From Enterobacteria phage JenP1: DNA of 60,754 bases. Positions 33,395 to 42,842 of the stretch are shown here, one piece after another. Numbering within the stretch: the first letter of the stretch is position 1; each line of letters starts with the position of its first letter. The stretch is taken from sequence record NC_029028.1; one strand, given 5' to 3'. The notes beneath the pieces were generated by a model. The model saw only the letters and a list, made by a program, of their open reading frames with translations. It was not told the origin of the DNA and did not search any database. Position numbers and translations under genes: made by a program.

Positions 33395-34102
33395 TCACTC
33401 TACACCTAAATACTTGTGAACCTGTAATTGCACGATGTAATTATGCTTCATTGCATATTTAACGACAGCTTGAGCGTTTGCTTTATTAGCATCGTCGTCC
33501 TGTTCATCCATAGGTTGAAGATAAATTTTACCTTTAAAGTGTACAGGCGGACGTGCGATAAATGGTGTCGCACGGTGATCCAGTGCCTGCAACGGTAATC
33601 CATCTTCCTCGTTGACGTTTCCGCTTTTCATTACATATTTGAAAGCATCTGCTCGAGCGGAAACGCTAGGGTGAACCTTTGCTGCCTTAGGACTACATAC
33701 TACCACACAGTTATAGTTGAGTTCACGCGGGATGGGCATAGTTCCGTTAGTTTCAACCTGTACACGATAACCTTTCATATCGATAAGGTAGTTGATAAAA
33801 TTAACAACTTCGGGTTGACGGAAAGGTTCGCCGCCAGTAATGACAACTAATTTAGTCTTGGCTTCACCAGTGACACGGACAATCTCTTGCCAAATGTCAC
33901 CGTGATTCATCTTCTTACGATTGGACGTATAGTTTGTGTCACATCCTGGGCATTGCAGATTACAACCAGCTAATCGAACAAATACGGCGGGTTGACCACA
34001 AAATGGGCCTTCACCTTGAATGGTATGAAAAATGGAATGTACATCAAGAATACCACGTTCACGAACTAGCTTCTCAGGTTCCTGAGTATTAATAATTTTC
34101 AT
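33395..34102 (-). CDS. queE: 7-carboxy-7-deazaguanine synthase (radical SAM)
   Basis: 236 aa from ATG 34102; motif IQGEGPFCGQPAVFVRLAGCNLQCPGCDT matches QueE. Confidence 0.8.
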   Translation of the reverse strand: MKIINTQEPEKLVRERGILDVHSIFHTIQGEGPFCGQPAVFVRLAGCNLQCPGCDTNYTSNRKKMNHGDIWQEIVRVTGEAKTKLVVITGGEPFRQPEVVNFINYLIDMKGYRVQVETNGTMPIPRELNYNCVVVCSPKAAKVHPSVSARADAFKYVMKSGNVNEEDGLPLQALDHRATPFIARPPVHFKGKIYLQPMDEQDDDANKANAQAVVKYAMKHNYIVQLQVHKYLGVE

Positions 34103-34227
34103 ATGATTTCCAAATTTGGCTTGAGCCCAGTGGTGGGCGATAATGGCTTGTGCAAACATTTGAACCTCGGGGTAAGATAACAAAGGGGCAGTAAATGCCC
34201 CTTCTGAGTTTCCGAAGTATCTACAGA

Positions 34228-35872: not shown

Positions 35873-36112
35873 TTAATCCTTCCACCACTCGGGCCCACAA
35901 TACATTCCACGTAGTTCTTCACGCATGTAATTTTCAAACTCGTCTTCAATGTTGATTACTTGACTTTCGTGAAAAACTGCCACACCATGAATAAATCGTT
36001 TAGCTCTTTCCCCTTTAATTACACCGTAACCTAACTCCTCCCACTCTTTAAAAGTTTTCCATTCACCTTCTTCCGGTGAATGGTCGTCACTTCTAAACGT
36101 CATCTTTGCCAT
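35873..36112 (-). CDS. hypothetical small protein
   Basis: 79 aa from internal ATG 36112, directly after helicase stop. Confidence 0.35.
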   Translation of the reverse strand: MAKMTFRSDDHSPEEGEWKTFKEWEELGYGVIKGERAKRFIHGVAVFHESQVINIEDEFENYMREELRGMYCGPEWWKD

Positions 36113-36119
36113 ATAAGCC

Positions 36120-38123
36120 TCAAAATGGAATGTCGTCATCAAAATCTGGTGGTAGCTCTTTACCGTTACCAGTAAGAATAGGTTGATTAGACGTAGAATG
36201 CAATACTGTCGTACGGGAATCAGTCTGCTCATCTTCATCAAACTTATTCGTATAACTGCCACCAAACTGGGACAGACCATTCATTGCTGCGATTTGTACA
36301 ACCGGACGTTCGTTGGTTGCCTCTTTCTTACCGAACTCACTACCGTCATAACAACTATTCAACACTTCGGGGAACTTACCCTTCAAGTTGACATAAATGT
36401 GCGTCGGTACACGAAGCTGGCTGACCACATTGAGGGCTTCGTCAATGTTAGCTGGGATTGCCAGGCTGCAATGCTCACGCCACCAGTTACGCGCTTTCTT
36501 ACCCGCAAAGCCGGTATGGAACAGGCAGATATATTGTTGAATAGTTTGTGAGCCACAAAGATAATCGACACGAAGTGTTGGTGGCTTAGAACGGTCACCC
36601 CTGTTCTCGTGACGATAATAACTCACCATATCAACTTTCAACACTTCAGTAACTGGTAAATCATTCTTGATAATAGCTTTCGTACTTGCACTCGCCATCA
36701 GTTTCTTCTCAAAAGTAAACTCATGGCCGCAATAACCAGCACGACACGCTTTATTATTTGTAATGGTATAACCTAATCCTTGTAGATAGAGTATTTCTTC
36801 ATGAGACATGCTGCTTGTGTCGAATGGTTTTAACCCACCACAGAAGCGAACTGACGCATGGTTCCATGTCTTACATATTGGACATTCCTTAACAGGTGCA
36901 GCGGATTTTCCTTTCTGCCCTGGGCGCTTAGGAATGACCGGGTCATTAATAGGCCCAAGACGTCTTGTGTTACCTGCATAATCCAATACAAGACAGTTCT
37001 GTTTATGCGAAGCGGAGATAGCTTGCAAACGACCCTCTGTTGTGGTCAAATCAAAACCATCTGCATAATCAGGTCGCGTACCACGTCCAAGCATCTGAAC
37101 CCACAAACGGGAAGATTGAGATGGTCGCATACCAATTATCAAGTCAAGTCCAGGATGGTCGAAGCCTGTCGTTAATACGTTGTTGTTTGCTATTGCCTGC
37201 AAACGACCAGCTTTAAAATCAATAAGATACTGGTCACGCAAGGCTTTCGGTGTATCACCAGTTACAACTTCACAACTAATACCGCGCTCGTTGAGGTAGT
37301 CTTTGACATCTTTTGCATGGTCTACACCAGCACAAAAGATAAGCCAACTCATTCTATTCTCTTCTTCCGCAATACTAATCGCATCATCTAATAAATGGCG
37401 AGTTACATCAGGATCGTTTACAACCTTTTGAAGCTCACTTTCAATGAACTCACCTCCTCGAGTATGAACACCACTTACATCATACTCTTTCTTTGTTTTA
37501 CGTGGTACTAACGGAACAAGATAACCTTCATCGATGAACCAGTTGAAGCACTCTACGGTACACGCGTTAAATACGATTTCATCAAATAGAGCGTTAGGCG
37601 CATAATCATCTTTGATAATAGAACCAAAACCAAGACGCCAACTCGTAGCAGTAAGACCGATAATCTTTAGATATGGATTCTTTTCACGAATGTGCGCAAA
37701 GAACTTCTGATAACTTGTTTGCTGATTTGGACTAATAAGGTCACATTCGTCAACTATAATAATATCAACGTCCTCAAAGTATTTAGCTTGTTTTGCAACA
37801 GACTGAATACCCGCGAACGTTATCATTGCGTTCTTATCTTTGCGGCCCATACCAGCACTATAAATACCAGTCGGTGCTTCAGGCCACAATTTCTTGAATT
37901 TATCGTGGTTCTGGTCTATTAATTCTTTTACGTGAGTAATTACCATCATGCGGGTACTACCCCAATTATCATGAATTGTCTTTAATAGACCAGCAATTAC
38001 AAGGGACTTACCAGTCCCTGTAGGCAACAAGATAACAGGATTTCCTGACTTTTCACCATGCTTGATGAAATAGCGCAATGTACTATTTACAGCTTCTTGC
38101 TGATAATCACGTAGTTTGAACAT
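36120..38123 (-). CDS. SF2 DNA helicase with C-terminal zinc-finger region and SSB-like C-terminal tip
   Basis: Walker A LLPTGTGKS, DECD box, later helicase motifs; Cys clusters CPICK...C and CRAGYCGHEF; final residues DFDDDIPF. Confidence 0.7.
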   Translation of the reverse strand: MFKLRDYQQEAVNSTLRYFIKHGEKSGNPVILLPTGTGKSLVIAGLLKTIHDNWGSTRMMVITHVKELIDQNHDKFKKLWPEAPTGIYSAGMGRKDKNAMITFAGIQSVAKQAKYFEDVDIIIVDECDLISPNQQTSYQKFFAHIREKNPYLKIIGLTATSWRLGFGSIIKDDYAPNALFDEIVFNACTVECFNWFIDEGYLVPLVPRKTKKEYDVSGVHTRGGEFIESELQKVVNDPDVTRHLLDDAISIAEEENRMSWLIFCAGVDHAKDVKDYLNERGISCEVVTGDTPKALRDQYLIDFKAGRLQAIANNNVLTTGFDHPGLDLIIGMRPSQSSRLWVQMLGRGTRPDYADGFDLTTTEGRLQAISASHKQNCLVLDYAGNTRRLGPINDPVIPKRPGQKGKSAAPVKECPICKTWNHASVRFCGGLKPFDTSSMSHEEILYLQGLGYTITNNKACRAGYCGHEFTFEKKLMASASTKAIIKNDLPVTEVLKVDMVSYYRHENRGDRSKPPTLRVDYLCGSQTIQQYICLFHTGFAGKKARNWWREHCSLAIPANIDEALNVVSQLRVPTHIYVNLKGKFPEVLNSCYDGSEFGKKEATNERPVVQIAAMNGLSQFGGSYTNKFDEDEQTDSRTTVLHSTSNQPILTGNGKELPPDFDDDIPF

Positions 38124-39074
38124 TTACTCACCGTAATAATCTGCTGCTTCGTATTGACCACATGCTGCCATCTGGTCTTCCTTCGTTAACACACCTTCGG
38201 TTCCATCGGTGATGTATGCAGTAGCAGAAGCTACTTTAATTGCACATCTCCAGGTTCCATCTTCAAGCGGATAAGAGTGCTTACAGGTGCGGCAGTTAAC
38301 TTCAGGCATCTTATTGTTGTGACATACCGCCTTGTGGTCACACCATTTGCATTTATAGTAAGACTTACTTTCATTGATCTTAGGTGGTGGGCATTCTGCC
38401 AGTGCAATTACAAATCCACGGTCTTTGTAGCGTTCTGCGGTTTCTTTATCAAACGGTACAAGCTCTGCCCAAATCTCGTCCGTGTTCTTGTTGACTGCAA
38501 TATAAAGAGCGGCTGGGAGTCCATAATACAACATGTATTCCTGCATCTGAACATAGTGTTCCCATTTGGATTCCATCACACCATTAACGACAAGTTTCTT
38601 GAATGAATCGTTATTGTGCGTTTTCATCTCCGTTAAGATTGGTGTAGAAGGTTGTGGCATGTCAGGGCAACCAATGACAATACCATCTATCGCGGAGCCA
38701 AAGTGCCCGTTGAGATAGCTAACTCGATACTGGCTGCCATTTTCGTCTTGTTGGATGACTTGCATACCGGCGGTAAGTAGTAAGGCCACGAAGCGACCTT
38801 CTTCAAGATGCCCGCGATTGAATAGACGTAAGGTTTTACCGTTAAAGTGTGGTTTAGTTGCCCATCGCCATCCGTAGAAGATTGCTCTACTACATTCTTG
38901 CCCGATAAGACTAATCCCAAGATGCGAACGGAATCCGCCATCTCCCTCTCGATATGCGTCTTCAATATGCGGTAATACTTTTCCGAGCCATACTCTGTAA
39001 GCGGATCCTTGATCTCGTTCAATACAGTCATTGAATAACTCCATTGTCCTAGTAGCAGGATAAAAATGTGGCAT
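38124..39074 (-). CDS. PD-(D/E)xK nuclease, RecB-family/Cas4-like with C-terminal Cys cluster (putative exonuclease)
   Basis: motifs AIDGIV, LTEMK, QMQEYMLYY (QxxxY) and multiple C-terminal cysteines. Confidence 0.5.
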   Translation of the reverse strand: MPHFYPATRTMELFNDCIERDQGSAYRVWLGKVLPHIEDAYREGDGGFRSHLGISLIGQECSRAIFYGWRWATKPHFNGKTLRLFNRGHLEEGRFVALLLTAGMQVIQQDENGSQYRVSYLNGHFGSAIDGIVIGCPDMPQPSTPILTEMKTHNNDSFKKLVVNGVMESKWEHYVQMQEYMLYYGLPAALYIAVNKNTDEIWAELVPFDKETAERYKDRGFVIALAECPPPKINESKSYYKCKWCDHKAVCHNNKMPEVNCRTCKHSYPLEDGTWRCAIKVASATAYITDGTEGVLTKEDQMAACGQYEAADYYGE

Positions 39075-39090
39075 ATCATAATCCTATATA

Positions 39091-39117
39091 GAAAAATAAA
39101 GCTCCCGAAGGAGCTTT
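39091..39117 (-). terminator. intrinsic terminator/attenuator
   Basis: minus strand hairpin AAAGCTCC-ttcg-GGAGCTTT followed by ATTTTTC. Confidence 0.5.
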
Positions 39118-39136
39118 ATTATAACATGATTTTTAA

Positions 39137-40084
39137 TTACTGTGCAGCGTCATCGCCTTCAGTGGAACGTTTCCACGGTGGAGTCTTGGTCTGAGCTGCT
39201 TTAGCGATATCGTCCTGGACTTCTGGTTCTGCATGGTTAGCAGTACCAGTATTCTGAGCTTGAGTTTGTGGTTGCTCTGCTCCAGGTTGTACCTGCTGAG
39301 TTGCCCAGTTAGGTTGCTGCTGAGTCTGCTGCTGCGGTTGCTGCGCACCAGTAGCCCACGGTTGAGATTGTGCCGCACTGTTAAAATCAACTGTTCCAGA
39401 CTGCTGAGGTTGCTGCTGTTGCTGTACCGGCTGCTGCGGCTGTTGTTGCTGTTGTTGCTGTTGTTGCTGCTGGAACCCCTGAGTCTGAGGTTGCTGCTGC
39501 TGTTGCTGCTGTTGCTGCGGCTGCTGCCCAAATGCGCCCGGGAAACCCTGCTGCGGTTGCTGCTGTGGCTGCTGAGTACCACCGAACGCACCGCCACCAA
39601 ATGCTGGAGACTGTGCTGCCGCTGCCGGAGTTGATTTAGGCAGGTTAGCCATGTCCGCCTTAGTTGCGTATACAACACCTTCCATATTATCAATTGCTTG
39701 ATAAATCTGAGGTTCGTTGTTTGGCTCATAGCCAGGTTGCTGACGAACTTTCACTTTCAGGTTGAACGGAATACCGTGCAGTTGTTCGGTATCGTTCCAA
39801 ACTGGAACTTTAACAGCACGAGACAGCTCTGCCAGTTCTTCCATTGCAATCTGTACAGCGACAGGGTTTGCGTTCTTGACGTTGTAACCGCCAAACATCA
39901 CACGACCAGCAAAATCACCCTGCATAATCTTAAACTGAAGATTCAGACGCGCACCGCCTGGAGTTTTAGTCGGTTTGATCTCAGAGTTTACAATCTGAAC
40001 AACATACCAACCAGCGGGCATCAAGCTATTGTGTTGACGCTCTGCGTGTTGTCCAGCGTTAAATTGCATTCCTAAACCGGCCAT
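39137..40084 (-). CDS. DUF669-like putative ssDNA-binding protein with long poly-Gln linker
   Basis: N-terminal WYVVQIVNSEIKPTKTPGGARLNLQFKIMQGDFAGRVMFGGYNV resembles DUF669 family; central ~60-residue Q-rich tract; adjacent to Sak4-like ATPase. Confidence 0.5.
   Translation of the reverse strand: MAGLGMQFNAGQHAERQHNSLMPAGWYVVQIVNSEIKPTKTPGGARLNLQFKIMQGDFAGRVMFGGYNVKNANPVAVQIAMEELAELSRAVKVPVWNDTEQLHGIPFNLKVKVRQQPGYEPNNEPQIYQAIDNMEGVVYATKADMANLPKSTPAAAAQSPAFGGGAFGGTQQPQQQPQQGFPGAFGQQPQQQQQQQQQPQTQGFQQQQQQQQQQQPQQPVQQQQQPQQSGTVDFNSAAQSQPWATGAQQPQQQTQQQPNWATQQVQPGAEQPQTQAQNTGTANHAEPEVQDDIAKAAQTKTPPWKRSTEGDDAAQ
39395..39600 (-). repeat. CAG/CAA trinucleotide-rich tract encoding poly-glutamine
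   Basis: runs of CTGCTG/TTGCTG on plus strand giving Q runs on minus strand. Confidence 0.8.
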
Positions 40085-40830
40085 TATTGTACCCCTTTGA
40101 TTTTGTTAATGATTGCACCGAGATGTGGATATTCCATCTGTTCTAACGAACCAGAACGATCTTTACATACATTTGACAGATCTGGTCTGGTCAGCAGATA
40201 ACGAAAATCTGCTTGAGTATTTTGGTCTTTACCAACACTAATTTTGAACACTTCGTCAAAAAAGTATGGTAGTTCTGGACCTAATTTTGCACCAGGCATA
40301 GAAGGACCGTAAGACGTAATACCTGTCAACTCATCCTTGTTACGGGACATTTTAGCTGCCATGTACACGTTAAGTCCAGGGATATCTCGAAAAGCGCGAA
40401 CTAAAGTTTGCATCTTCTCAATAAGATCCCCATAAGCCTGACGCGGATCTTTCACAGTACGCTTCGCATTGTTAAGGCACTTTTCAGCAATCTCAGTAAG
40501 TGAATCCAGCGCAAGAGACTGAAAGCGCGGTAAACCATCTTCACCTACAGGATTGTTTGCAGGGTTAGTCGCCCAAACATAAGCCTGCTCTACATCCTGG
40601 ATATTTTCAACCGTGATGGTTGGAATATCGTAGCAGATATCTGGTCTGTTTTCACCAAATACACGAGCAATGTTATTTGGTGTTAAAGATAAGAGCCCAG
40701 ACTCCGCAGAAATCAGCAACGGTCTTGGAAGAGTTGCTGTAAGCATGGTTTTACCCATACCAGATTCACCATACACAAGCATCTTGACACCAGTGTCCAG
40801 AACTGCTTGAGCGGTAGTTGTAAATTGCAT
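40084..40830 (-). CDS. Sak4-like RecA-fold ATPase (single-strand annealing/recombination)
   Basis: Walker A VYGESGMGKT near N-terminus, ~250 aa, next to DUF669 gene. Confidence 0.55.
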   Translation of the reverse strand: MQFTTTAQAVLDTGVKMLVYGESGMGKTMLTATLPRPLLISAESGLLSLTPNNIARVFGENRPDICYDIPTITVENIQDVEQAYVWATNPANNPVGEDGLPRFQSLALDSLTEIAEKCLNNAKRTVKDPRQAYGDLIEKMQTLVRAFRDIPGLNVYMAAKMSRNKDELTGITSYGPSMPGAKLGPELPYFFDEVFKISVGKDQNTQADFRYLLTRPDLSNVCKDRSGSLEQMEYPHLGAIINKIKGVQ

Positions 40831-40894: not shown

Positions 40895-41839
40895 TTATTC
40901 ACTAATATCCGTTGGATCACGGAAACTTTGATGCGTAGGAATACGCAATTTGTCCTTCATACCGTGAGCAAAGAATTTCCATTTAGAAATCTTCCCAATA
41001 AATTCATCGGGATGCTCAAAGTAATATTTACGTTCTTCATGCGTAAGACGACCAGCACCTACACGCATTTCTTGTCCAACTTCAATAAGATCTTCAAGAC
41101 CTTCCGGTACTGTAAGAACGCGAACATCAAACGAACCAACCATACCATTCGGTATCATATTAGCTTGGTGGCTTGAACGATACGTCTGCCCTAATTCATT
41201 AATCTGCGCTTCATTCTCGTTGGTGCAACCTTCGATAATACGAATGATCTCACCTTCACCATCAGTAAAACGTTTAATGCGGAGATAACCGCCTTCACGC
41301 TGCGTACTACGACCCCATTTATATTTCGCTTCAAGGTCACGAATGATTACACCTTCGTACCCCATATCAAGCCAAATATTTTCCCACTCCAGGAGTTCTT
41401 GTTCGTTGTTGACCACATACAGCGGCACAACCTTCACGTCCATTAACTCGCCGTTAGCGTGGCATTCGTCCACGTACTTCTTGAGCATGTCATAACGCTC
41501 TTTGTACGGCAGATGTGCAACGTTTGGTTCGCACAAATCGAATACATGCCACGTCCAAACGTATTCACCTTCAATTTTAGATGTTGCACTACTTGTCTTA
41601 CGACATAAGTCAAAGTCCGTCTCTTCTCCAACGGCAAGCTCACCGTCCATGCCATCGTAAATGGAAGATCCAAATACCTTTGCGACCTGCTTATTTGCAA
41701 AAGATTTAAGACTTCGTCCAACAAGCTCCCCGAACGGTTTCATCCCACGAACTCCGTCAATTTTAGGCATGACGCCTACGGGGTATTTCTGTTTAGCTGA
41801 ATCCCAATCTGTTGCTAGATAAGGTTTAAATCGAGCCAT
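40895..41839 (-). CDS. ATP-dependent DNA ligase
   Basis: adenylation motif KIDGVRG near N-terminus, ~314 aa. Confidence 0.75.
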   Translation of the reverse strand: MARFKPYLATDWDSAKQKYPVGVMPKIDGVRGMKPFGELVGRSLKSFANKQVAKVFGSSIYDGMDGELAVGEETDFDLCRKTSSATSKIEGEYVWTWHVFDLCEPNVAHLPYKERYDMLKKYVDECHANGELMDVKVVPLYVVNNEQELLEWENIWLDMGYEGVIIRDLEAKYKWGRSTQREGGYLRIKRFTDGEGEIIRIIEGCTNENEAQINELGQTYRSSHQANMIPNGMVGSFDVRVLTVPEGLEDLIEVGQEMRVGAGRLTHEERKYYFEHPDEFIGKISKWKFFAHGMKDKLRIPTHQSFRDPTDISE

Positions 41840-42416
41840 TGAAATTTACCTTTGTGTGTTCCCGAACAAGAAGTTTTAACTTCCTAACCCAAGATTGCTG
41901 TTTCTCAATGTTAACTTTCTTCGGTTTAGGAATAACGGATTTTGCTGTATCTACTTTCAATTTATCGTAGTCCATGCGACGTCTACCTGTTCGCATGTGC
42001 ATACCCGCAATTTCATCGCACTTGTCTTGTGCAAGGCTACGGGAATCCATCCTACCTGAATGACCTTTAACATGACGGAACTGGAAACTAAGTCTATTCT
42101 CAACAATAGTATCCATGAACCATTTATAAATTTGTTGCTCTTCTCCTCTTGGTGGACGTTTACCTTCGAACATATGGATAGCTGCTTTGCAATCCGTCTG
42201 GAACAATATAACGTCGTTTGTGTAGATAAGTCCAGCCTCTATACCGTGATATAAACCGTTAGCTACTGCAATACATTCAACTACGGTATTATCCGTGTGA
42301 CCATGTGCAGGGCCACCAAAAGCCTTCTTACCCCGTTTGGAGGCTACCCAAATTCCATAGCCTCCACATTTAGTACGGTGACAGAACGACGCATCCGATA
42401 TTATCGTGATGAGCAT
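41826..42416 (-). CDS. ribonuclease H
   Basis: ISDASF...GGYGI and FRHVKGHSG...DKCDEIA resemble RNase HI catalytic motifs. Confidence 0.65.
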   Translation of the reverse strand: MLITIISDASFCHRTKCGGYGIWVASKRGKKAFGGPAHGHTDNTVVECIAVANGLYHGIEAGLIYTNDVILFQTDCKAAIHMFEGKRPPRGEEQQIYKWFMDTIVENRLSFQFRHVKGHSGRMDSRSLAQDKCDEIAGMHMRTGRRRMDYDKLKVDTAKSVIPKPKKVNIEKQQSWVRKLKLLVREHTKVNFNGSI

Positions 42417-42842
42417 TCAACCCTTCTTAACAGCGATCTTAACCTGTGGAGAACCTGGAGTTGTGGTCACGCATTCGTCAAAGATCGCCAACTGTTCAGC
42501 TGTGAGCTTACGATATGCAGCCACACGGAGTTCTACTTTAGTTTCAGTAACTTCGTTGACATCCACACCAGCTTCAATAAGATCTGGTAAGATCTGACTA
42601 AAGATCGCCTTATCAACTTTACGCGTATAAGGTTGAGTAACAACAAGATCGTCACCTGTATCAAGTTTGATCTTATTAGTGTTTTCGTTAAGACCATCAG
42701 GAAAGAACACGCTAACCACACTTTGACGCAGTGCGCGTTCTTGCGCTTGCACTTTGGCTAATTCTTCTTTCTTAGAATACCAGTTATAAAGAAGTTCGTA
42801 TTTCTGCTCTTCAGTTAAGTTCATTTCTGGTAACTGGACCAT
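42417..42842 (-). CDS. hypothetical protein
   Basis: 141 aa ORF, no motif recognised. Confidence 0.4.
   Translation of the reverse strand: MVQLPEMNLTEEQKYELLYNWYSKKEELAKVQAQERALRQSVVSVFFPDGLNENTNKIKLDTGDDLVVTQPYTRKVDKAIFSQILPDLIEAGVDVNEVTETKVELRVAAYRKLTAEQLAIFDECVTTTPGSPQVKIAVKKG

Follow-up and report, generated by a model that had tools for sequence, protein, structure and literature searches.

A Sak4 ATPase, a DUF669-type single-stranded DNA-binding protein with a length-variable glutamine-rich tail and a Cas4-like nuclease in a probable recombination cassette of the lytic phage JenP1

The window studied here is the whole stretch of 60,754 nucleotides of sequence record NC_029028.1, i.e., the genome of Enterobacteria phage JenP1, a lytic Nonagvirus. 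We consider a gene cluster in it that encodes a Sak4-type ATPase, a DUF669-type phage SSB (single-strand binding protein) with a long glutamine-rich tail, a Cas4/RecB-family nuclease and a superfamily 2 (SF2) helicase, all on the minus strand. In the direction of transcription, the order is DUF7173 protein, RNase H, ligase, AAA_24 ATPase, DUF669 SSB, nuclease of 316 amino acids (aa) and SF2 helicase. We read this arrangement as a conserved cassette for recombination and recombination-dependent replication, to which we assign a probability of roughly 0.78. It is a known and already annotated kind of module that is ordinary for this phage group: its genes carry the RefSeq labels 'Sak4-like ssDNA annealing protein', 'single strand DNA binding protein' and 'Cas4-domain exonuclease', and the region is 95-97% identical to that of other Nonagvirus phages (9g, JenP2, JenK1, SE1, PD328 and others).

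The ATPase is identified by two family profiles. It matches Pfam AAA_24 (PF13479) over residues 14-226 (E = 6.8e-23, 82 bits for a cutoff of 27) as well as PHROG 124, 'Sak4-like ssDNA annealing protein' (1.4e-54). An earlier reading of the window from its letters alone (in the following, the sequence-only reading) had called the gene Sak4-type by the peptide VYGESGMGKT, which forms residues 19-28 and includes the Walker A motif. G24, G26, K27 and T28 of Walker A as well as D109, the aspartate of Walker B, are invariant in 22 aligned Sak4 proteins, among them that of phage HK620. With 248 aa, nearly all of which are covered by the AAA_24 profile, the protein has core-only size, i.e., it carries neither a RecA C-terminal nor a Rad51 N-terminal domain. 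It shares 100% identity with its counterparts in SP8 and JenK1 and shows 28% identity to the Septimatrevirus Sak4 over 98% of its length (4e-17). A single-sequence search of the PDB returned just weak matches to NAM7 helicase (E of at least 0.14) and was discarded.

The DUF669 protein, 315 aa long, is deposited in identical form as YP_009220014.1 under the name 'single strand DNA binding protein [Enterobacteria phage JenP1]'. Residues 14-116 match PF05037 above threshold (35.3 bits for a cutoff of 21, E = 1.4e-8), and the protein hits phrog_6015, 'single strand DNA binding protein', at 3.4e-93. A word-indexed homologue search with the OB domain returned just 7 proteins such that an exhaustive search was needed, which yielded 5437 cluster representatives at E <= 0.001 for the first 150 residues. 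The AlphaFold2 model, built with 143 homologues, reaches a predicted local distance difference test (pLDDT) score above 90 at residues ~20-140. Between residues ~10 and 150 its elements follow the order strand-strand-strand-helix-strand-strand, which is that of an OB fold, and the nearest solved structure to this modelled fold is PrgE. Family match and modelled fold together support a predicted ssDNA-binding protein. It is not of the canonical type, i.e., there is neither a match to Pfam SSB (PF00436) nor a terminal DDDIPF, and the chain ends in ...GDDAAQ. A single-sequence PDB search with this protein matched just the poly-Gln region of a Shaker channel, a compositional artefact.

For the nuclease, there is a strong profile match to PHROG 1990, 'Cas4-domain exonuclease' (7.9e-115). 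No Pfam family was matched even at E <= 1, and a precomputed assignment to PF12705 exists for just one distant homologue. The AlphaFold2 model of the nuclease has a pLDDT of 90.9 and a predicted template modelling score of 0.88, and Foldseek relates it to Cas4 SSO0001 (1.6e-6), lambda exonuclease (2.6e-5), LHK-Exo (6.5e-5) and Cas4 Pcal_0546 (2.8e-4), with further matches to Exo5, MGME1 and RecE. Among 54 homologues, D130, E149, K151, Q176 and Y180 are invariant and correspond to the D...ExK and QxxxY motifs of the RecB family. The same holds for C61, C242, C245 and C251, which by sequence form a Cas4/AddB-type C...CxxCx5C quartet. The modelled fold and the invariant motifs thus support the assignment as a Cas4/RecB-family PD-(D/E)XK nuclease. 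Four more C-terminal cysteines are invariant (C261, C264, C277, C305), which suggests a zinc-ribbon-like module that is absent from Cas4 proper. The cysteine cluster with these extra residues lies at 38124-38350 on the minus strand (residues ~242-305), where the record of phage 9g notes a Trm112p-like domain. Database searches for known structures were of no use here: a single-sequence PDB search gave no match and a profile search against PDB sequences gave spurious ankyrin matches, such that fold comparison was used instead.

The sequence-only reading had named the same three products, i.e., a Sak4-type ATPase, an adjoining DUF669-like protein and a RecB-family nuclease just downstream. All three identities hold, and both the Sak4 and the DUF669 family profiles are matched where it had allowed for a lack of homology to either family. 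Table 1 lists the features of the locus.

Table 1. Features of the JenP1 cassette, in order of transcription with sub-features below their gene (positions refer to the window)
Feature	Position	Strand	Remarks
DUF7173 protein	42417-42842	-	PF23791 2e-37
RNase H	41826-42416	-	
ATP-dependent ligase	40895-41839	-	
Sak4-type (AAA_24) ATPase, 248 aa	40084-40830	-	Pfam, PHROG
Walker A GESGMGKT (Sak4 residues 21-28)	40747-40770	-	Walker B Asp is D109 in LALDS
DUF669-type phage SSB, 315 aa	39137-40084	-	Pfam, PHROG, exact RefSeq match
OB-fold DNA-binding domain with conserved N-terminal arm (residues 1-150), predicted	39635-40084	-	
Disordered tail, predicted (residues 151-315, 165 residues)	39140-39634	-	pLDDT ~45-59, without secondary structure
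Core Q/P-rich tract (residues 170-228)	39401-39577	-	mixed CAG/CAA codons; indel hotspot
Short second Q patch (residues 247-258) with a Trp motif on either side	39311-39346	-	Tandem Repeats Finder 12-nt repeat 39311-39344; length-variable
PPW motif (residues 302-304)	39173-39181	-	candidate partner-docking motif; weaker copies W243 (SQPW), W260 (QPNW)
Terminator-like hairpin	39095-39120	-	11-bp stem, TTCG loop, then TTTTC
Cas4/RecB-family PD-(D/E)XK nuclease, 316 aa	38124-39074	-	PHROG, predicted fold, invariant motifs
SF2 helicase (ResIII/DEAD + Helicase_C), final cassette gene	36120-38123	-	Pfam ResIII 1.7e-21, Helicase_C 1.3e-12, phrog_16
Helicase C-terminal octapeptide DFDDDIPF	36123-36146	-	identical to E. 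coli K-12 SSB tip

The genes for Sak4, DUF669 SSB, Cas4-like nuclease and SF2 helicase follow each other in this order in at least five further genera (Seuratvirus, Kleczkowskavirus, Loughboroughvirus, Septimatrevirus and Lokivirus). In three of these five, one or two small open reading frames (ORFs) are found in between. The helicase is placed 3' of the nuclease in all six genera inspected, and the SSB gene adjoins that of Sak4 in each of them, in JenP1 with an overlap. About 80% of sak4 genes are known to adjoin an ssb gene (PMC5928155). The DUF7173 gene is found directly upstream of Sak4 in Septimatrevirus (Kakheti25) and Lokivirus (IME_AB3), while it is split from Sak4 by the RNase H and ligase genes in Nonagvirus and Seuratvirus. 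The DUF7173 protein thus travels with the cassette, as also observed on the related loci L020 (3994-4434), L021 (3979-4452) and L017 (1334-1744).

Within the JenP1 cassette, the Sak4 stop and the DUF669 start codon share one base (TAATG), and a Shine-Dalgarno-like GGGG run is located just upstream. Given this overlap, the Sak4-SSB pair is probably translationally coupled. Immediately 3' of the SSB stop codon and ahead of the nuclease gene, we find the hairpin AATAAAGCTCC-TTCG-GGAGCTTTATT followed by a T-run, and the same site carries a terminator annotation in phages SP8 and HdSG1. Its position after the SSB gene suggests that Sak4 and SSB may be expressed above the level of nuclease and helicase.

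Beyond its OB domain, the SSB consists of a tail in which 61 of 165 residues are glutamine. The core tract contains 40 Gln and 8 Pro among its 59 residues and is interrupted by the motifs GFPGAFG and QGF. Compared to a background of 4.4% Gln in those other ORFs of the window that reach 150 aa, this corresponds to a binomial P of ~3e-40. CAG and CAA codons are interleaved, and the longest pure codon run is (CAG)3. Arrays with periods of 3, 9 and 18 are found by Tandem Repeats Finder at 39409-39527 as well as shorter arrays at 39311-39344 and 39548-39574. The last 35 residues hold 7 D/E versus 4 K/R, and the chain ends in ...TPPWKRSTEGDDAAQ with no terminal aromatic residue. The sequence-only reading had described this part as a ~60-residue poly-Gln linker that resembles the disordered linker of bacterial SSB and is followed by an acidic C-terminus. 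The size and the CAG/CAA coding are right, while the tract is an interrupted Q/P spacer and no pure poly-Gln. The likeness to the E. coli SSB linker is compositional only, and the C-terminus is weakly acidic and lacks a terminal Phe.

Three Trp motifs are found in the JenP1 tail, i.e., SQPW, QPNW and TPPW. The Trp of the last one, W304, is retained by at least 90% of the 143 homologues in the alignment. PPW occurs within the last 15 residues in 94 of the 149 best-scoring cluster representatives, and a motif of the form [PAGS]W or P-x-W is present there in 139. The PPW motif, rather than an acidic peptide at the very end, is the sole strongly conserved element of DUF669 tails across the family. 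In HK620, the last six residues of the SSB, NDYPPF, are needed for Sak4 loading on SSB-coated DNA and for the stimulation of annealing (PMC5928155). By analogy to this role, the PPW motif probably recruits Sak4 onto SSB-coated DNA.

Putting these parts together, the following course of events is the most likely. The Cas4-like nuclease would, judging by its family, resect DNA ends to single strands, which the DUF669 SSB would coat via its OB domain. PrgE binds DNA as a filament via its N-terminal tail (PMC11137577), and the DUF669 SSB may in a similar manner polymerise like 'beads on a string' via its conserved N-terminal arm. Aromatic motifs of the tail and PPW would then bring in the co-translated Sak4, as the HK620 case suggests. 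Sak4 of HK620 anneals ssDNA with ATP and is stimulated by the neighbouring DUF669-type SSB (Hutinet et al. 2018, PMC5928155), and the Sak4 of PA73 shows low-level annealing in vivo (Lopes et al. 2010, PMC2896510). The JenP1 protein, a RecA-core-only ATPase, would likewise anneal complementary strands with ATP. Finally, the SF2 helicase would remodel the resulting branched intermediates and thereby feed recombination-dependent replication and repair. The Q/P tract would serve as a flexible spacer of weakly constrained length, and its CAG/CAA coding would favour slippage that keeps the frame as well as tandem duplication and conversion within the gene.

A number of observations weigh against this reading. 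The activities of the cassette in Nonagvirus would follow from family membership and analogy rather than from biochemistry, and the reference system HK620 is remote. By BLAST, JenP1 and HK620 Sak4 align at the P-loop only. Between their SSBs, similarity could not be detected (BLASTP E = 18, hhalign probability 2.7%), and the HK620 SSB has no Pfam DUF669 match at E <= 0.01; its link to DUF669 rests on a published HHpred analysis (PMC5928155). With regard to the RecA-like fold, the Sak4 profile gave just sub-threshold KaiC/RadA matches against PDB sequences (E = 0.4-0.8), which span Walker A to B. The docking analogy is uncertain since 11 residues follow PPW, in contrast to the strictly terminal Phe of the E. 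coli and HK620 SSBs. Within the Q tract, runs of an identical codon do not exceed three units, and without a longer pure repeat its slippage rate may be modest. Finally, the terminator-like hairpin separates the SSB gene from nuclease and helicase, and one strict operon may therefore not hold. This also qualifies the single-strand annealing system that the sequence-only reading had considered plausible: its three components are in place but possibly not within one transcription unit.

Another explanation has to be considered for the same genes, namely that DUF669 is a general replicative SSB and the AAA_24 ATPase a replication accessory (a helicase or polymerase loader, or a factor of fork restart), with recombination being incidental. 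The cassette does reside in a neighbourhood of replication functions (ligase, RNase H, dUTPase, RusA, helicase), and a tblastn search of the window with the OB domain of E. coli SSB detects no other SSB OB domain, i.e., no canonical SSB elsewhere (nothing below E = 2). In addition, DUF669 has been predicted and argued to be the replicative SSB of viruses without other SSBs (Kazlauskas et al., PMC4889955), and the recombineering activities reported so far for Sak4 are weak (PMC5928155, PMC2896510). On the other hand, the combination of Sak4, SSB and Cas4-like exonuclease is a typical annealase-plus-exonuclease arrangement, and the HK620 Sak4 does anneal DNA in vitro (PMC5928155). Furthermore, replication and annealing roles are compatible in phages with recombination-dependent initiation. 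We thus regard a purely replicative role as possible yet doubtful and keep the recombination cassette as our preferred reading.

What the tail contributes can be assessed from its relatives. Tails of at least 60 residues past the OB domain are present in 102 of the 149 representatives. The commonest tail residue in these is Ala (43), Gln (32), Pro (22) or Glu (3), and in 24 representatives, at least 30% of the tail residues are Gln. Between 2 and 6 Trp per tail are found in 92 of the 102 long tails, often in repeated short motifs within Q-, A-, P- or G-rich spacers, such as GGAWGG in Kakheti25 and IME_AB3 or xPWxQ in Seurat and RHEph06. That is, a long low-complexity tail is typical of DUF669 relatives and is conserved by motif, not by composition. 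Our literature search found no paper on DUF669 tails, which is no proof of novelty.

Instead of a mere spacer, the Q-rich tail could act as a functional multivalent 'sticker and spacer' element that drives cooperativity or condensates, with its length under selection. The JenP1 tail offers nine spaced aromatics for this (F162, F167, F181, F185, F204, F234, W243, W260, W304), and a Klebsiella relative has QGW at positions equivalent to QGF in JenP1. The multiple Trp of the long tails, often in repeated GGAWGG or xPWAQ, would fit as well. Moreover, the linker of E. coli SSB (GGWGQPQQPQGGNQF) is similar in composition and, according to published reports, drives both cooperativity and phase separation (PMC11947617; bioRxiv 10.1101/2022.01.17.476650). 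However, the variation of the spacer's dominant residue over the family counts against a Gln-specific role, and the indels among isolates resemble neutral slippage products. We therefore deem such a function rather unlikely and retain the flexible spacer of weakly constrained length.

We also aligned the DUF669 gene codon by codon across 13 Nonagvirus isolates. All 13 proteins differ from each other, and 8 different lengths between 301 and 315 aa are observed. The gap columns are restricted to the Q tracts, i.e., 21 of 68 columns for residues 170-228 and 9 of 35 for residues 229-262, where all 9 fall inside the 247-258 Q patch. Each indel comprises whole codons. The OB domain, in contrast, shows zero gaps and only 4 of 150 variable residues, and the last 53 residues are gap-free as well. 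The adjoining Sak4 is even 100% identical in some of these phages. Individual changes can be traced to repeat units: JenP1 has an extra CAG-CAA-CAG (9 nt) beside an identical unit, i.e., a tandem duplication, HdSG1 a tandem duplicate of the 15-nt QQPVQ unit and BRET an extra 9-nt unit. In JenP2, a second copy of GFPGAFG replaces QQPVQQQ, which resembles intragenic conversion. The JenP1 tract is the longest seen, and its exact unit count is that of the assembly.

Several of these indels look like slippage products, and the repetitive CAG/CAA coding accounts for the length differences between isolates. The slippage hotspot expected by the sequence-only reading, along with length polymorphism of the repeat, is thus supported at the level of between-isolate polymorphism. 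One could further suspect a contingency locus in which slippage toggles the gene or gives an alternative-frame product. The CAG/CAA coding indeed leaves both other frames open across the tail (39133-39729 on the minus and 39233-39634 on the plus strand), as is to be expected for CAG-type repeats. We rejected these two ORFs as genes, as they are Ser/Asn/Arg- or Leu-rich readings of a stop-free CAG/CAA repeat. Since the frame is kept in 13 of 13 isolates with every indel a multiple of three, the PPW motif 3' of the tract is conserved and the longest pure codon run has just three units, such a locus is very improbable. An assembly or sequencing artefact, a concern already raised by the sequence-only reading and generally warranted for low-complexity repeats, has next to no credibility, given that the tract keeps the reading frame, has conserved coding sequence on both sides and recurs in all 13 independently sequenced isolates as well as in metagenomic contigs.

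The final gene of the cassette shows a feature that the phage SSB lacks. The helicase ends in ...KELPPDFDDDIPF and the SSB of E. coli K-12 (NC_000913.3) in ...NEPPMDFDDDIPF, i.e., their last eight residues are identical. The DFDDDIPF tail is also present in the SE1 helicase, and the Seurat helicase ends in DDPDYVPF, while the helicases of three more distant cassettes that were inspected are without any such tail. The match suggests that it is the helicase and not the phage SSB which offers the peptide recognised by host SSB-binding proteins, and it may represent mimicry of the host SSB interaction tip. In our literature search, DDDIPF tails of phage helicases did not come up in any paper, which does not prove novelty. 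SF2 helicases of this kind in Nonagvirus and Seuratvirus share 13-14% identity with T4 UvsW and T5 D10, and the Seuratvirus helicase, like UvsW and D10, triggers Retron-Eco11 (PMC12746101).

Going one step further, DUF669 tails might be multivalent docking scaffolds that present copies of a Pro/Gly-Trp motif with the near-invariant PPW as the last one. The phage SSB would then address phage partners only (Sak4 via PPW), whereas the DFDDDIPF of the helicase would plug into the host SSB network (e.g., Pol III chi, PriA, RecQ, Exo I) or compete with host SSB. This combined picture, drawn from motif patterns, is speculative and, in our estimate, improbable.

Just after the helicase gene, there is a 79-aa ORF (35873-36112, minus strand) whose similarity to the N-terminal ssDNA-binding domain of ArdC is borderline (PF08401, 22.3 bits for a cutoff of 22.6), and its SE1 counterpart is annotated as 'ssDNA-binding domain-containing protein'. 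Further away, the ORF at 33395-34183 (minus strand) contains a CxxxCxxC-type motif (CNLQCPGC). Judging by this motif, it looks like a radical-SAM, QueE-like enzyme. Such an enzyme would agree with the modification of DNA by 7-deazaguanine for which 9g-like phages are known.

As the genes are already so named in RefSeq and the Sak4-SSB partnership has been biochemically worked out in HK620, the locus itself has little discovery value. Its use lies elsewhere. The repeat is now documented as real, in-frame and length-variable and provides a natural linker-length series in a single genus, with proteins of 301 to 315 aa. Furthermore, the PPW motif is a concrete target for the question of Sak4 recruitment, and the helicase tip would, if functional, be a neat case in which a phage protein makes use of an interaction peptide of its host.

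Among known systems, HK620 shares with JenP1 an AAA_24/Sak4 gene immediately upstream of and overlapping a non-canonical phage SSB gene. The Walker A/B residues are common to both Sak4 proteins, and the HK620 Sak4 matches PF13479 and phrog_124 too, albeit more weakly than that of JenP1. Both SSB tails contain a Pro-Pro-aromatic element (PPF in HK620, PPW in JenP1). They differ in size and layout: the HK620 SSB has 195 aa and a short tail that ends in NDYPPF, compared to 315 aa and a 165-residue Q-rich tail with PPW 11 residues from the end in JenP1. HK620 is also temperate, and its module is paired with the anti-RecBCD protein Abc2 and not with a Cas4-like nuclease and an SF2 helicase.

The cassette of Septimatrevirus (PA73/Kakheti25) shows the order DUF7173, Sak4, DUF669 SSB, Cas4 nuclease and SF2 helicase. 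PA73, for which Kakheti25 was used as stand-in, presumably belongs to the genus of the latter. The SSB tail of this cassette is rich in Q, G and P, has repeated Trp motifs and ends in ...APWGQR. In contrast to Nonagvirus, no RNase H or ligase gene is inserted between DUF7173 and Sak4. In addition, the spacer is Q/G-rich there and Q/P-rich in JenP1, and the helicase is without the DDDIPF tail.

With PrgE of plasmid pCF10 (PDB 8S4S/8S4T), the DUF669 SSB has the N-terminal arm ahead of the barrel in common, at 12-14% identity. PrgE, however, has 144 aa without a long disordered tail or PPW and is a protein of a conjugation operon that is not linked to Sak4. E. coli SSB (PF00436) resembles the phage protein in its general layout, i.e., an OB domain followed by a disordered Gly/Gln/Pro-rich linker with GW/QF aromatics and a partner-binding motif near the end. 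The OB domains have no sequence similarity and weak fold similarity (E = 0.01-0.1). Past the OB domain there are ~65 residues in E. coli SSB versus 165 in the phage tail, which is dominated by Gln rather than Gly. Moreover, DDDIPF is terminal in E. coli SSB, while in JenP1 it is found on the helicase and not on the phage SSB.

Finally, the lambda Exo/Red-beta and RecE/RecT systems likewise place a PD-(D/E)XK exonuclease beside an annealing protein, and the JenP1 nuclease is predicted to have a lambda-exonuclease-like fold (by the Foldseek match given above). The annealase of JenP1 differs in being a RecA-core ATPase and not a Rad52-like ring protein, its nuclease has the Cas4-type Cys quartet, and the cassette adds a dedicated SSB and a helicase.

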